64,000 nucleotides of DNA from NCBI RefSeq assembly GCF_003018255.1, contig NZ_CP027440.1. The stretch is one strand, 5' to 3'. The position numbers were made by a program, and so were the translations under genes. The notes beneath the pieces were generated by a model, which made no database searches, was not told where the DNA came from, and saw only the letters and a program-made list of their open reading frames with translations. Below, piece by piece: positions 8,558 through 63,205 of this stretch (position 1 is its first letter; each line of letters begins with the position of its first letter). The stretch comes from Escherichia coli. GTDB lineage: Bacteria; Pseudomonadota; Gammaproteobacteria; Enterobacterales; Enterobacteriaceae.

Positions 8558-8964
8558 AAATGCGAAAAAAAGCTCGTACTTTCGTACGAGCTCTTCTTTG
8601 AATATGGCGGTGAGGGGGGGATTGACTCGCTTCGCTCGCCCTGCGGGCAGCCCACTCACTGTGTTCGTGGTCTGTCCAACTGGCTGCGCCAGTTGTCGAA
8701 CCCCGGTCGGGGCTTCTCATCCCCCCTGGAGTGCAATATGCGAAAAAAAAGCTCGCACTTTCGTACGAGCTCTTCTTTGAATATGGCGGTGAGGGGGGGG
8801 ATTGACTCGCTTCGCTCGCCCTGCGGGCAGCCCACTCACTGTGTTCGTGGTCTGTCCAACTGGCTGCGCCAGTTGTCGAACCCCGGTCGGGGCTTCTCAT
8901 CCCCCCTGGAGTGCAATATGCGAAAAAAAAAGCTCGCACTTTCGTACGAGCTCTTCTTTGAATA
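8558..8964 (-). repeat. Tandem ~180-bp direct repeat (two full units plus a leading partial unit) downstream of serW; each unit = terminator hairpin + ~115-bp spacer + 19-20 nt copy of the tRNA-Ser 3' end
   Basis: Unit starts at 8605, 8784 and (true tRNA) 8965, periods 179 and 181; near-identical units differing by homopolymer length and one stem base. Confidence 0.85.
8923..8951 (-). terminator. Rho-independent terminator immediately 3' of serW (first of three repeated copies)
   Basis: Minus strand: gctcgtac-gaaa-gtgcgagc hairpin followed by 9 U; copies also at about 8565-8593 and 8744-8772. Confidence 0.8.
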
Positions 8965-9052
8965 TGGCGGTGAGGGGGGGATTCGAACCCCCGATACGTT
9001 GCCGTATACACACTTTCCAGGCGTGCTCCTTCAGCCACTCGGACACCTCACC
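8965..9052 (-). tRNA. serW: tRNA-Ser (GGA anticodon), 88 nt with long variable arm and encoded CCA
   Basis: Reverse complement reads GGTGAGGTGTCCGAGTGGCTGAAGGAGCACGCCTGGAAAGTGTGTATACGGCAACGTATCGGGGGTTCGAATCCCCCCCTCACCGCCA. Confidence 0.9.
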
Positions 9053-23863: not shown

Positions 23864-23883
23864 TACCCAATTTTTCTGAATCT

Positions 23884-23909
23884 AAAAAGCGCCTGCGGGC
23901 GCTTTTTTT
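23884..23909 (+). terminator. Rho-independent terminator downstream of serS
   Basis: agcgcc-tgcg-ggcgct hairpin followed by 7 T. Confidence 0.8.
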
Positions 23910-24101
23910 GTCTCCCTTTGATACCGAACAATAATTACTCCTCACTTACACGTAATACTACTTTCGAGTGAAAATCTACCTATCTCTTTGATTTTCAAAT
24001 TATTCGATGTATACAAGCCTATATAGCGAACTGCTATAGAAATAATTACACAATACGGTTTGTTACTGGAATCAATCGTGAGCAAGCTTGAGTGAGCCAT
24101 T

Positions 24102-41768: not shown

Positions 41769-41937
41769 ATGAACAACGTGCAATAAATAGCCAAATCTTT
41801 CTTTATCAAAACGTCGGCACATTGCCGGCGTTTTTTTTTCGGACCTTGTGAGTCATTTTGATTAATGGTAGCGTCGCTTGTCAATGTAAGTTATTGATAC
41901 ATAATATTTATATATGATTAATCAACGGATGATTCAC

Positions 41938-42702: not shown

Positions 42703-42874
42703 ATCATTGTCATCTTTCGGGCTGGTCTTCTGCCAGCCCGCTATAATTGCGCAATAAATCCCCATCTGAATACAGACAAAACTGGTTTTTGCACACAACG
42801 TTAACGATTTGTGGCGTCGGCGCGTATAATGCGCGCGGTTATGTTAACGGTACGCCTGTTTTAAGGAGATAAAG

Positions 42875-43558
42875 ATGACGGCAATTGCCCCGGTTATTAC
42901 CATTGATGGCCCAAGCGGTGCAGGGAAAGGCACCTTGTGTAAGGCTATGGCGGAAGCGTTGCAATGGCATCTGCTGGACTCGGGTGCAATTTATCGCGTA
43001 CTGGCACTGGCGGCATTACATCACCATGTTGATGTTGCATCGGAAGATGCGCTGGTGCCGCTGGCATCCCATCTGGATGTACGTTTTGTGTCGACCAATG
43101 GCAATCTGGAAGTGATCCTCGAAGGGGAAGATGTCAGTGGCGAAATTCGTACTCAGGAAGTGGCGAATGCAGCTTCACAAGTCGCGGCATTCCCACGCGT
43201 TCGTGAAGCATTATTGCGTCGCCAACGCGCGTTTCGCGAATTACCAGGCCTGATTGCCGATGGCCGTGACATGGGAACGGTGGTATTCCCTGATGCGCCA
43301 GTGAAAATTTTCCTTGACGCCTCCTCGGAAGAACGTGCGCATCGCCGCATGCTACAGTTGCAGGAGAAGGGCTTTAGTGTTAACTTTGAGCGCCTTTTGG
43401 CTGAGATCAAAGAACGCGACGACCGCGATCGTAACCGAGCGGTAGCGCCACTGGTTCCGGCAGCCGATGCTTTAGTGTTGGATTCCACCACCTTAAGCAT
43501 TGAGCAAGTGATTGAAAAAGCGCTACAATACGCGCGCCAGAAATTGGCTCTCGCATAA
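42875..43558 (+). CDS. cmk: Cytidylate kinase
   Basis: 227 aa; P-loop GPSGAGKGT. Confidence 0.95.
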
Positions 43559-43668
43559 GCGACCGAATTTGCAGTACCCCCGTTGCAATGGAATGACAGC
43601 GGGTATGTTAAACAACCCCATCCGGCATGGAGCCAGGTGGACGTTAAATATAAACCTGAAGATTAAAC

Positions 43669-45342
43669 ATGACTGAATCTTTTGCTCAACTCTTTGAAGA
43701 GTCCTTAAAAGAAATCGAAACCCGCCCGGGTTCTATCGTTCGTGGCGTTGTTGTTGCTATCGACAAAGACGTAGTACTGGTTGACGCTGGTCTGAAATCT
43801 GAGTCCGCCATCCCGGCTGAGCAGTTCAAAAACGCCCAGGGCGAGCTGGAAATCCAGGTAGGTGACGAAGTTGACGTTGCTCTGGACGCAGTAGAAGACG
43901 GCTTCGGTGAAACTCTGCTGTCCCGTGAGAAAGCTAAACGTCACGAAGCCTGGATCACGCTGGAAAAAGCTTACGAAGATGCTGAAACTGTTACCGGTGT
44001 TATCAACGGCAAAGTTAAGGGCGGCTTCACTGTTGAGCTGAACGGTATTCGTGCGTTCCTGCCAGGTTCTCTGGTAGACGTTCGTCCGGTGCGTGACACT
44101 CTGCACCTGGAAGGCAAAGAGCTTGAATTCAAAGTAATCAAGCTGGATCAGAAGCGCAACAACGTTGTTGTTTCTCGTCGTGCCGTTATCGAATCCGAAA
44201 ACAGCGCAGAGCGCGATCAGCTGCTGGAAAACCTGCAGGAAGGCATGGAAGTTAAAGGTATCGTTAAGAACCTCACTGACTACGGTGCATTCGTTGATCT
44301 GGGCGGCGTTGACGGCCTGCTGCACATCACTGACATGGCCTGGAAACGCGTTAAGCATCCGAGCGAAATCGTCAACGTGGGCGACGAAATCACTGTTAAA
44401 GTGCTGAAGTTCGACCGCGAACGTACCCGTGTATCCCTGGGCCTGAAACAGCTGGGCGAAGATCCGTGGGTAGCTATCGCTAAACGTTATCCGGAAGGTA
44501 CCAAACTGACTGGTCGCGTGACCAACCTGACCGACTACGGCTGCTTCGTTGAAATCGAAGAAGGCGTTGAAGGCCTGGTACACGTTTCCGAAATGGATTG
44601 GACCAACAAAAACATCCACCCGTCCAAAGTTGTTAACGTTGGCGATGTAGTGGAAGTTATGGTTCTGGATATCGACGAAGAACGTCGTCGTATCTCCCTG
44701 GGTCTGAAACAGTGCAAAGCTAACCCGTGGCAGCAGTTCGCGGAAACCCACAACAAGGGCGACCGTGTTGAAGGTAAAATCAAGTCTATCACTGACTTCG
44801 GTATCTTCATCGGCCTGGACGGCGGCATCGACGGCCTGGTTCACCTGTCTGACATCTCCTGGAACGTTGCAGGCGAAGAAGCAGTTCGTGAATACAAAAA
44901 AGGCGACGAAATCGCTGCAGTTGTTCTGCAGGTTGACGCAGAACGTGAACGTATCTCCCTGGGCGTTAAACAGCTCGCAGAAGATCCGTTCAACAACTGG
45001 GTTGCTCTGAACAAGAAAGGCGCTATCGTAACCGGTAAAGTAACTGCAGTTGACGCTAAAGGCGCAACCGTAGAACTGGCTGACGGCGTTGAAGGTTACC
45101 TGCGTGCTTCTGAAGCATCCCGTGACCGCGTTGAAGACGCTACCCTGGTTCTGAGCGTTGGCGACGAAGTTGAAGCTAAATTCACCGGCGTTGATCGTAA
45201 AAACCGCGCAATCAGCCTGTCTGTTCGTGCGAAAGACGAAGCTGACGAGAAAGATGCAATCGCAACTGTTAACAAACAGGAAGATGCAAACTTCTCCAAC
45301 AACGCAATGGCTGAAGCTTTCAAAGCAGCTAAAGGCGAGTAA
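43669..45342 (+). CDS. rpsA: 30S ribosomal protein S1
   Basis: 557 aa; six S1 repeats; no Shine-Dalgarno upstream of ATG. Confidence 0.95.
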
Positions 45343-45501
45343 TTCTCTGACTCTTCGGGATTTTTATTCCGAAGTTTGTTGAGTTTACTTGACAGATTGC
45401 AGGTTTCGTCCTGTAATCAAGCACTAAGGGCGGCTACGGCCGCCCTTAATCAATGCAGCAACAGCAGCCGCTAAATTTGCCTTTAAGGAACCGGAGGAAT
45501 C

Positions 45502-45786
45502 ATGACCAAGTCAGAATTGATAGAAAGACTTGCCACCCAGCAATCGCACATTCCCGCCAAGACGGTTGAAGATGCAGTAAAAGAGATGCTGGAGCATATG
45601 GCCTCGACTCTTGCGCAGGGCGAGCGTATTGAAATCCGCGGTTTCGGCAGTTTCTCTTTGCACTACCGCGCACCACGTACCGGACGTAATCCGAAGACTG
45701 GCGATAAAGTAGAACTGGAAGGAAAATACGTTCCTCACTTTAAACCAGGTAAAGAACTGCGCGATCGCGCCAATATTTACGGTTAA
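45502..45786 (+). CDS. ihfB: Integration host factor beta subunit
   Basis: 94 aa [30 protein letters not shown]. Confidence 0.95.
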
Positions 45787-45811
45787 GTTTTTACTCAAAC
45801 TTGAACGCGAG

Positions 45812-45836
45812 AAAAGCACCTGTCGGGTGCTTTTTT
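45812..45836 (+). terminator. Rho-independent terminator downstream of ihfB
   Basis: agcacc-tgtcg-ggtgct hairpin + T tract. Confidence 0.75.
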
Positions 45837-45992
45837 CATTTCTCTAATCTGGAACTGGAAGCAGCCTCGCAGAGTTTTGAACAGTTTTCACCCTCTCGTT
45901 AAATTCTTCTGAACGTGCCTCGGGGAACGCAAAACTCCCACCAGACAACCGCTCAACAAAGTTGCACACTTTCCATAAACAGGGAGGGGTGC

Positions 45993-48257
45993 ATGAAAAT
46001 AACGACAGTCGGCGTATGCATAATTTGCGGAATTTTTCCGTTGCTGATTTTGCCCCAATTGCCTGGGACATTAACCCTTGCGTCTCTGACCGTCTTCGCC
46101 TGCGTACTGGTATTTATCCCTTTTAAAACTGTCCGTTATATCGCGCTGACGTTGCTGTTTTTCGTTTGGGGCATATTAGCAGCAAAGCAAATTTTGTGGG
46201 CAGGAGAAACCTTAACTGGCGCGACGCAGGATGCAATTGTTGAGATCACTGCTACTGACGGTATGACCACTCATTACGGTCAAATTACTCATCTACAAGG
46301 TCGACGTATATTCCCTGCGCCAGGCCTCGTGCTGTATGGCGAATATCTTCCGCAAGCGGTTTGTGCTGGACAACTGTGGTCAATGAAACTCAAAGTTCGT
46401 GCAGTTCATGGTCAACTTAATGATGGCGGCTTTGATAGCCAGCGTTATGCCATTGCCCAGCATCAGCCGCTCACCGGCCGCTTTCTGCAGGCAAGTGTCA
46501 TTGAACCGAATTGTAGCCTGCGTGCACAGTATCTGGCGTCACTACAAACAACGCTGCAACCCTATATGTGGAACGCGGTTATTCTTGGTTTAGGTATGGG
46601 GGAACGGTTATCCGTTCCCAAAGAAATCAAAAATATCATGCGCGATACTGGAACGGCGCATTTAATGGCGATATCGGGATTGCATATCGCTTTTGCGGCG
46701 TTGCTGGCTGCCGGACTCATTCGCGGTGGGCAAGTTTTTCTGCCTGGGCGCTGGATCCACTGGCAAATGCCATTAATTGGCGGAATCTGCTGTGCTGCTT
46801 TTTATGCCTGGCTGACTGGGATGCAACCTCCTGCATTGCGTACCGTGGTGGCGCTTGCCATGTGGGGAATGCTTAAGTTAAGTGGGCGACAATGGAGTGG
46901 CTGGGATGTATGGATATGTTGTCTGGCGGCAATTTTGCTGATGGATCCTGTTGCCATTCTCTCGCAAAGTTTATGGCTCTCTGCCGCTGCGGTCGCGGCA
47001 CTGATTTTTTGGTACCAGTGGTTTCCCTGTCCGGAGTGGCAACTGCCGCCGGTATTGCGTGCAGTTGTTTCCCTCATTCATTTACAACTGGGAATCACAC
47101 TCCTGCTTATGCCCGTGCAAATCGTCATATTTCATGGCATTAGTCTGACCTCGTTTATTGCAAATCTATTTGCAATTCCCCTGGTGACATTTATCACGGT
47201 TCCGTTGATCCTCGCCGCGATGGTTGCGCATTTAAGCGGGCCGTTTATTCTGGAACAAGGGTTATGGTTTCTTGCCGACCGGTCTTTGGCTTTACTTTTC
47301 TGGGGGTTAAAGAGTTTGCCGGAAGGGTGGATCAACATTGCTGAACGTTGGCAATGGCTAACATTTTCCCCATGGTTCTTACTGGTGGTATGGCGATTAA
47401 ACGCCTGGCGAACGTTGCCAGCAATGTGTGTGGCTGTAGGCTTGCTGATGTGCTTGCCGCTGTGGCAAAAACCTCGACCTGACGAGTGGCAAGTGTACAT
47501 GCTTGATGTCGGGCAAGGGCTGGCAATGGTCATTGCGCGAAACGGCAAAGCGATTCTCTATGACACGGGACTGGCCTGGCCCGAAGGGGATAGTGGGCAA
47601 CAACTGATTATCCCCTGGCTCCACTGGCATAATCTTGAACCGGAAGGCGTTATTTTGAGTCATGAACATCTGGATCACCGGGGAGGGCTGGACTCAATAT
47701 TGCACACATGGCCGATGTTATGGATCCGAAGTCAGTTAAACTGGGAACATCATCAGCCCTGTGTGCGTGGCGAAGCGTGGCAATGGCAAGGATTGCGTTT
47801 CAGCGCGCACTGGCCTTTACAAGGTAGCAACGATAAAGGAAATAACCATTCCTGTGTGGTTAAGATTGATGACGGGACGAATAGCATTCTTCTAACCGGT
47901 GATATTGAAGCCCCCGCTGAACAAAAGATGCTAAGCCGTTACTGGCAGCAAATGCAGGCAACATTACTTCAGGTACCTCACCATGGCAGTAATACCTCAT
48001 CATCGTTGCCATTAATTCAGCGAGTGAATGGAAAAGTGGCACTCGCATCGGCATCGCGCTATAACGCATGGCGACTGCCCTCAAGCAAAGTTAAACATCG
48101 CTATCAACAACAGGGTTATAAGTGGCTTGATACTCCACATCAGGGTCAAATAACGGTCAATTTTTCAGCGCAAGGCTGGCGGATTAGCAGCCTCAGAGAG
48201 CAAATTTTACCTCGTTGGTATCATCAGTGGTTTGGCGTGCCAGTGGATAACGGGTAG
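45993..48257 (+). CDS. ycaI: ComEC-family inner membrane protein (competence-like channel with metallo-beta-lactamase domain)
   Basis: 754 aa from MKITTVGVCIICGIFPLL; ATG 45993 with RBS agggagggg; HEHLDHRGG motif. Confidence 0.85.
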   Translation: MKITTVGVCIICGIFPLLILPQLPGTLTLASLTVFACVLVFIPFKTVRYIALTLLFFVWGILAAKQILWAGETLTGATQDAIVEITATDGMTTHYGQITHLQGRRIFPAPGLVLYGEYLPQAVCAGQLWSMKLKVRAVHGQLNDGGFDSQRYAIAQHQPLTGRFLQASVIEPNCSLRAQYLASLQTTLQPYMWNAVILGLGMGERLSVPKEIKNIMRDTGTAHLMAISGLHIAFAALLAAGLIRGGQVFLPGRWIHWQMPLIGGICCAAFYAWLTGMQPPALRTVVALAMWGMLKLSGRQWSGWDVWICCLAAILLMDPVAILSQSLWLSAAAVAALIFWYQWFPCPEWQLPPVLRAVVSLIHLQLGITLLLMPVQIVIFHGISLTSFIANLFAIPLVTFITVPLILAAMVAHLSGPFILEQGLWFLADRSLALLFWGLKSLPEGWINIAERWQWLTFSPWFLLVVWRLNAWRTLPAMCVAVGLLMCLPLWQKPRPDEWQVYMLDVGQGLAMVIARNGKAILYDTGLAWPEGDSGQQLIIPWLHWHNLEPEGVILSHEHLDHRGGLDSILHTWPMLWIRSQLNWEHHQPCVRGEAWQWQGLRFSAHWPLQGSNDKGNNHSCVVKIDDGTNSILLTGDIEAPAEQKMLSRYWQQMQATLLQVPHHGSNTSSSLPLIQRVNGKVALASASRYNAWRLPSSKVKHRYQQQGYKWLDTPHQGQITVNFSAQGWRISSLREQILPRWYHQWFGVPVDNG

Positions 48258-62490: not shown

Positions 62491-63205
62491 GTGCACAGAA
62501 AACCCCCAGCTAGGCTGGGGGTTCCGGAAAGCTTTCAGCTTTGAGCCAGTTATTAAAACCCCTTTTGATTTGTTAAAACACCTTGCGGTCTGGCAACTGC
62601 AAGTGTCAAACAAGAAATCAAAAGGGGGTCCCAATGGGGAACGAAAAGAGCTTAGCGCACACCCGATGGAACTGTAAATATCACATAGTTTTTGCGCCAA
62701 AATACCGAAGACAAGTGTTCTACAGAGAGAAGCGTAGAGCAATAGGCAGTATTTTGAGAAAGCTGTGTGAGTGGAAAAGCGTACGGATTCTTGAAGCTGA
62801 ATGCTGTGCAGATCATATCCATATGCTTGTGGAGATCCCGCCCAAAATGAGTGTATCCGGCTTTATGGGATATCTGAAAGGGAAAAGCAGTCTGATGCTT
62901 TACGAGCAGTTTGGTGATTTGAAATTCAAATACAGGAACAGAGAGTTCTGGTGCAGAGGGTACTACGTCGATACGGTGGGTAAGAACACGGCGAAGATAC
63001 AGGATTACATAAAGCACCAGCTTGAAGAGGATAAAATGGGAGAGCAGTTATCGATTCCCTATCCGGGCAGCCCGTTTACGGGCCGTAAGTAACGAAGTTG
63101 GATGCAAATGTCAGATCGTGTGCGCCTGTTAGGGCGCGGCTGGTAAGAGAGCCTTATAGGCGCATTTGAAAAACCTCCGGCTATGCCGGAGGATATTTAT
63201 TTTCC
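62490..63205 (+). mobile_element. IS200-family (IS200/IS605 superfamily) insertion sequence, ~710 bp; ends approximate (about +/-15 bp)
   Basis: Single Y1 HuH transposase ORF flanked by left-end hairpin cccccag-ctagg-ctggggg and right-end hairpin cctccggctatgccggagg; no tnpB; mukB-ldtD spacer is ~710 bp longer than recalled for K-12. Confidence 0.8.
62634..63092 (+). CDS. tnpA: IS200 Y1-type transposase TnpA
   Basis: 152 aa from MGNEKSLAHTRWNCKYHIVFAPKYRR; HuH-like HIHMLV motif; ORF-track TTG start at 62583 trimmed to ATG 62634. Confidence 0.85.
   Translation: MGNEKSLAHTRWNCKYHIVFAPKYRRQVFYREKRRAIGSILRKLCEWKSVRILEAECCADHIHMLVEIPPKMSVSGFMGYLKGKSSLMLYEQFGDLKFKYRNREFWCRGYYVDTVGKNTAKIQDYIKHQLEEDKMGEQLSIPYPGSPFTGRK

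Follow-up and report, generated by a model that had tools for sequence, protein, structure and literature searches.

The rpsA locus

The window analyzed here is a 64,000-nucleotide stretch of the Escherichia coli chromosome, in which the annotated genes around the region of interest follow the order aroA, ycaL, cmk, rpsA, ihfB and ycaI. Positions 43400-43800 share at least 99% identity with 5425 of 5426 complete E. coli genomes and are 100% identical to several of them. In these identical genomes the open reading frame at 43669-45342 (+ strand), which encodes the 557-aa 30S ribosomal protein S1, is annotated as rpsA. The upstream gene cmk (42875-43558, +) stops 110 nt before the rpsA ATG (43669-43671), and this gap rules out translational coupling between the two genes. 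The rpsA start codon is secure, since an in-frame TGA at 43657-43659 rules out an alternative start further upstream and since the S1 N-terminus (11 residues) is conserved across the other genomes recovered.

According to the literature the 5' UTR, or translation initiation region (TIR), of rpsA spans -91 to -1 relative to the start codon. A sigma-70 promoter giving a 5' end at -91 was sought and none that was convincing was found, and -91 is therefore taken here as the TIR boundary of the literature and not as a mapped transcription start. The sole consensus-like promoter site, TTGAGC-N18-TACAAT at 43500-43529 (+), has 9 of 12 matches and lies inside cmk. A transcript from this site would begin near 43536, at about -132 relative to the rpsA start codon and hence farther upstream than -91. 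Promoters of rpsA are known to lie within cmk, and the 43500-43529 site may be one of them.

Other features of the locus and of the window were recorded in passing. In some E. coli strains an IS200C transposase gene is inserted between aroA and ycaL (for example strain DETEC-S792, positions 872-1330 of locus L001), and this gene is absent from the window (41769-41913). Terminator-like hairpins with T-runs follow the stop codons of rpsA (stop 45342; hairpin 45353-45374, +) and ihfB (stop 45786; hairpin 45809-45837, +). The rpsA-proximal one is weak, with 4 G-C pairs, and would fit read-through into ihfB. The mechanical ORF of ycaI (ComEC family; 45915-48257, +) begins at a GTG at 45915 and encodes 780 aa; the RefSeq gene is shorter (2265 nt, 754 aa) and starts at an internal ATG preceded by GGGAGGGG. 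Elsewhere in the window, gathering-level Rfam matches were to the sRNAs STnc490 (62501-62624, +) and STnc130 (23877-24011, -) and to a tRNA with an adjacent RtT element (8605-9052, -).

Absence of a Shine-Dalgarno sequence upstream of rpsA

An earlier note on this DNA had claimed that the 20 nt before the rpsA ATG hold no GGAGG-like element, and the region was re-inspected for a canonical Shine-Dalgarno sequence (SD). Between -20 and -4 no Watson-Crick match to the perfect SD UAAGGAGGU was longer than 3 contiguous nt, and the best duplex with the 16S 3' tail ACCUCCUUA reached -1.0 kcal/mol. At a spacing of 5-12 nt no canonical SD was found, nor was there any complementarity to the 16S 3' tail of at least 4-5 nt, so that the claim holds. 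The leader string quoted in the earlier note, aaatataaacctgaagattaaac, does lie directly before the ATG (43646-43668); its length is 23 nt rather than 20, a trivial correction. One refinement is that a vestigial SD-like GAAG is present at 43658-43661 (-11 to -8, +). It is one substitution away from GGAG and is the only SD-like element in the stretch just before the ATG.

When the 30 annotated neighboring genes were ranked by SD strength (range -13.0 to -0.9 kcal/mol), rpsA came 29th, and the lone gene with a weaker SD was lpxK, the start of which overlaps the end of msbA. Of positions drawn at random from the window, 38% score no better than rpsA, which places its upstream region at background SD complementarity. 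A single gene without an SD is not statistically remarkable alone, and the non-random part is that the absence is conserved. All 30 orthologous leaders of the E. coli type were without an SD, with duplexes of -0.9 to -1.8 kcal/mol. By contrast, among 88 further loci, most of them from other Gammaproteobacteria, 74 reached -3.5 kcal/mol or stronger, typically through an AGGA at -11 to -8 that gives about -4 kcal/mol, a modest SD. The lack of an SD tracks the three-hairpin structure described below, being seen in all leaders with that fold and in few of the others. Among 31 species the vestigial element itself reads GAAG in 25 and UAAG or AAAG in 5, and it is divergent in Orbaceae.

Translation of rpsA is treated as SD-independent in the literature. 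There, an A-to-G change at -10 is described as creating an SD, and the change of GAAG to GGAG as eliminating autogenous control of rpsA; according to the literature, GAAG is functionally important because it is weak.

Predicted structure of the rpsA leader

Folding of -91 to +21 (43578-43689) gave three hairpins, with identical minimum free energy (MFE) and centroid structures, and the thermodynamic z-score of the whole leader was modest (-1.9). Hairpin I (43579-43603, +) has the arms CCCGUUGCA and UG-A-CAGCGGG and a loop AUGGAA with a conserved GGA at 43590-43592, and on its own it folds with -10.8 kcal/mol. It is followed by the linker ss1, UAUGUUAAACAACC (43604-43617, +), in which AAC(C) is nearly invariant. 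The core of hairpin II (43618-43640, +), which was also predicted by RNAalifold, pairs CCAUC-C-GGC with GCC-A-GGUGG around a loop AUGGA with a conserved GGA at 43629-43631, and alone gives -10.3 kcal/mol. The second linker, ss2, ACGUUAAAUAUAAACCU (43641-43657, +), contains an invariant ACGUU, and the remainder varies in length and sequence. Hairpin III (43658-43682, +) pairs GAAGAUU with AAUCUUU and is weak (-2.1 kcal/mol alone). Its 3' arm consists of rpsA codons 3-5 (GAA UCU UUU) and its 11-nt loop holds the AUG.

The predicted probability of being unpaired was 0.95 for the AUG and 0.06 for GAAG, which lies in the 5' arm of hairpin III. The GGA triplets in the loops of hairpins I and II were predicted to be fully unpaired. 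Both linkers are rich in A and U (71% in ss1 and 76% in ss2), and in E. coli they are predicted to be unpaired with a probability of 0.40-0.48, with 0.40 for ss1. These values are low because weak A-U pairs can extend hairpin II, and this extension is not conserved in other species.

The whole rpsA TIR, and with it the S1 translational operator, can thereby be placed at 43578-43682 (+; -91 to +14). This extent is based on the three-hairpin MFE fold, on a covariance model (R1) that matches 43578-43692 of the window at 116 bits, and on the extent given in the literature. The earlier note had set the structured S1 leader at 43600-43668; the leader is indeed found there, and the element as a whole is larger, from about 43578 (-91) to 43682. 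Rfam 15 gave no match overlapping 43500-43700, neither in a scan of 42800-46000 at E <= 10 nor when all of the window was scanned at gathering thresholds. Rfam apparently has no family for the S1 leader, and this reflects missing coverage in the database, not novelty.

Conservation and covariation among rpsA leaders

A degenerate pattern of the S1 N-terminus was run against contigs representing one genome per species, and 120 loci were retrieved. Thirty of these have a leader of the E. coli type and, together with E. coli, make up a set of 31 from Enterobacterales, Vibrionales, Pasteurellales and one Orbaceae genome. When folded singly, each of the 31 leaders forms hairpins I and II, with GGA loops. 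Hairpin I has 9-11 bp in every species and carries GGA in or at the loop, while its stem sequences are very different. The covariance model picks up every one of the 31 leaders, at 86-129 bits, and gives no match at the 90 other loci.

With the raw MAFFT alignment RNAalifold recovered hairpins II and III, missed hairpin I and added a spurious long-range helix. Hairpin I was missed because indels had misaligned its arms, and the alignment was replaced by trimming to the hairpin starts, followed by model-guided realignment. In the sequence-only MAFFT alignment the three-hairpin structure left 89.3% of the cells paired, as compared to 37-55% in slid controls, and the covariation score was 0.334 against 0.06-0.17 in the slid controls, a value not attained in any of 500 shuffles. 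Model-guided realignment raised the proportion of paired cells to 93.2% (slid controls 37-51%; hairpin II 96.8%), and compensatory changes were seen in 11 pairs, namely 8 of the 9 pairs of hairpin I and 3 of the 8 of hairpin II. Since this alignment was fitted to the structure, these latter values are supportive and not independent. Taken together, the predicted hairpins I and II are supported by covariation across the 31 species. In hairpin III 94% of the cells were paired, but its two arms hardly vary, the 3' arm being constrained as coding sequence, and so no covariation was seen; here the comparative data neither support nor contradict the hairpin.

The invariant columns of the alignment include AACCCCA (43614-43620), the G of loop II and UGGA-GUU, and UGGACGUU (43638-43645) is likewise invariant across four orders.

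Some variation was observed outside these columns. Many Enterobacterales have a second copy of GAAGA/UAAGAA about 10 nt upstream of the conserved UGAAGAUU, as in AUUGAAGAAUCCUGAAGAUUAUC. Nine loci with this second copy were noted, all with it in the ss2 region at about -25 to -15, and in MFE folds the stretch forms a small alternative hairpin (GAAUC/GAUU) that replaces hairpin III. E. coli (43646-43657 of the window), E. albertii and Citrobacter are without this insert. In three pairs of loci from Marinobacterium spp., two S1-like N-termini (MSESFAELFEES...) occur per genome with differing upstream regions, which suggests two rpsA paralogues. A contig labelled as an Aquificaceae MAG (QOAQ01000020.1) encodes the same first 20 S1 residues as a Thiotrichaceae MAG, and both fit the pattern for the S1 N-terminus of Gammaproteobacteria; mis-binning or contamination is probable for this contig.

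Identity as the S1 translational operator

The rpsA translational operator, an S1-interacting leader RNA, goes back to Boni et al. 2001 (EMBO J 20:4222) and to Skorski et al. 2006 (J Bacteriol 188:6277), and an alignment of it is given by Fu et al. 2013 (NAR 41:3491). Fu et al. 2013 present hairpins H1-H3 with GG in loops L1 and L2, S1 toeprints on single-stranded regions and an ss-2 that is variable yet nearly always AU-rich, and they report S1-RNA-like elements in every gammaproteobacterial order. In the literature ss1 is described as an S1 target, the GG of L1 and L2 is important for regulation, as is the lower part of H2, and S1 binding as well as autogenous repression are reported for the exact E. 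coli leader sequence.

The element found here shares the strand of rpsA and directly precedes its start codon, and it agrees with the published E. coli rpsA operator in organism, position, GAAG at -11 to -8, three hairpins, GGA loops, AU-rich ss1 and ss2 and an extent to -91, with no detectable difference. Every defining feature that can be read from sequence was found, with the single-stranded state of ss1 and ss2 predicted in part, and we regard the element as the published operator and not merely as something similar. The fold comparison proposed in the earlier note, between the leader and the published operator, thus gives an agreeing three-hairpin architecture, and what that note called the known structured S1 autoregulatory leader is borne out by E. 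coli DNA upstream of rpsA with three hairpins, GGA loops, AU-rich linkers and a weak GAAG. No evidence contradicting this was met in the analysis. We are therefore highly confident that 43578-43682 is the rpsA TIR and autogenous operator of S1, and that it has no functional SD.

Other leaders show which of these features are shared. The E. coli rplY (L25) and fis leaders also belong to highly expressed mRNAs with a weak or absent SD and AU-rich enhancers, and like rpsA they combine a structured 5' UTR with an SD-like element that is weak (GAGA in rplY). In rplY, as in rpsA, a canonical SD in place of the weak one abolishes autogenous control. Unlike rpsA, these two leaders have other repressors and unrelated RNA folds, whereas the repressor of rpsA is the very protein that recruits rpsA mRNA to the ribosome. 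The pseudoknot operator of rpsO (S15) resembles that of rpsA in that it puts a ribosomal protein gene under autogenous translational control, lies in a structured 5' region and shows upstream 30S footprints, but it has a real SD (GGAG), and the 30S subunit is entrapped on the pseudoknot with no competition at an SD-less site.

Leaders of the Pseudomonas type precede the orthologous gene and have a hairpin-II-like ACCCACACC...GGUGUGGA, but they differ from E. coli in an AGGA at -11 to -8 (-4.3 kcal/mol), in a different proximal GC-rich hairpin and in giving no match to the covariance model. Endozoicomonas also keeps the hairpin-II-like ACCCACACC...GGUGUGGA, and its presence in both groups is compatible with what Fu et al. 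2013 reported for the gammaproteobacterial orders. Among themselves the Pseudomonas leaders are highly conserved over -60 to -1 (GUGUGGAGAUGGGCGUAUUCUUCGCCCUUAUCAACAGGAAUUAAA-AUG), with the hairpin-II-like element followed by the GC-rich hairpin and then AGGA, a distinct architecture with a modest SD.

Initiation and autogenous control at rpsA

The weak GAAG could instead be a genuine SD, with ordinary SD/anti-SD pairing driving initiation. Its distance of 7 nt to the AUG is right for an SD, it differs from GGAG at one position and (G/U/A)AAG is conserved in 30 of 31 leaders; this conservation is, however, equally explained by pairing with the invariant codons 3-5, and the distance to the AUG differs in Vibrionaceae. 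The duplex formed by GAAG, at merely -1.0 kcal/mol, equals that of random sequence, the element is predicted to be buried in the stem of hairpin III (probability of being unpaired 0.06) and the literature treats rpsA as SD-independent, all of which makes a functional SD at this position very improbable. Another way to retain SD pairing would be a discontinuous SD, in which the GGA triplets at 43590-43592 and 43629-43631 pair with the anti-SD CCUCC. All 31 species have these triplets in the two hairpin loops, where they are predicted to be fully unpaired, and the loop GGs are reported as important for regulation (Fu et al. 2013). The triplets are nevertheless located 38-79 nt from the AUG, far outside SD spacing. 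A literature search on the 'discontinuous SD' hypothesis found nothing relevant. Skorski and co-workers are reported to have found that changing GGA to CCU lowered expression and that specialised ribosomes with a compensating anti-SD gave no rescue. This reported lack of rescue disfavors the discontinuous SD, which we regard as very improbable.

Finally, the leader might hold no dedicated operator at all, if an unstructured, A/U-rich start codon suffices as in other SD-less genes and the hairpins are incidental. The AUG is predicted to be unpaired (0.95) in A/U-rich surroundings, and in the literature added structure at the rpsA start codon cuts expression to about 12%. An open start codon explains part of the behavior. 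It does not account for the compensatory substitutions that keep hairpins I and II across four orders, nor for the invariant GGA loops and AACCCCA/UGGACGUU flanks, and such conservation is unexpected for incidental sequence. Moreover, the hairpins are needed for efficiency and control according to the literature, and we hold out only a slight chance for this explanation.

For the S1 operator, published E. coli experiments suggest a mechanism in which the 30S subunit would be recruited through its own bound S1, contacting AU-rich single-stranded stretches, and not through SD/anti-SD pairing. In the anatomy and conservation described above, the predicted hairpins I and II, each with a GGA loop, flank the AU-rich ss1 and ss2, and the weak hairpin III is predicted to hold the vestigial GAAG in its stem and to present the AUG in its loop. 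Published work credits the three hairpins with a part in the efficiency of rpsA translation, and 30S-seq data place upstream 30S footprints in the rpsA 5' UTR, coinciding with the leader structures. Autogenous control is described as a competition between free S1 and 30S-bound S1. From the same kind of experiments, free S1 in excess of available ribosomes would bind the leader and compete with the 30S subunit, so that translation would be repressed. The weak GAAG would let repressor S1 win over the 30S subunit, because the change of GAAG to GGAG abolishes control; in the literature, a canonical SD likewise abolishes rpsA repression.

AACCCCA and UGGACGUU are strictly invariant across four orders while neighboring stem positions covary freely, and judged from the alignment this invariance is more than a simple helix would need. 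It is conceivable, though rather doubtful, that S1 or the 30S platform recognizes the base of hairpin II together with its flanks, through a sequence-specific module or a tertiary contact, for example an AAC/GUU extension or a docking site. If true, such a module could explain how S1, otherwise a non-specific RNA binder, selects its own mRNA.

The rpsA leader is already known and is textbook material, and our comparative data reproduce the published three hairpins, the GGA loops and the narrow phylogenetic distribution. Its recognition here confirms the annotation and the reading in the earlier note, and adds no new biology. In E. coli the leader is a classic example of translation initiation that is very efficient without an SD, as well as a classic case of a ribosomal protein that represses its own mRNA by competing with the ribosome.
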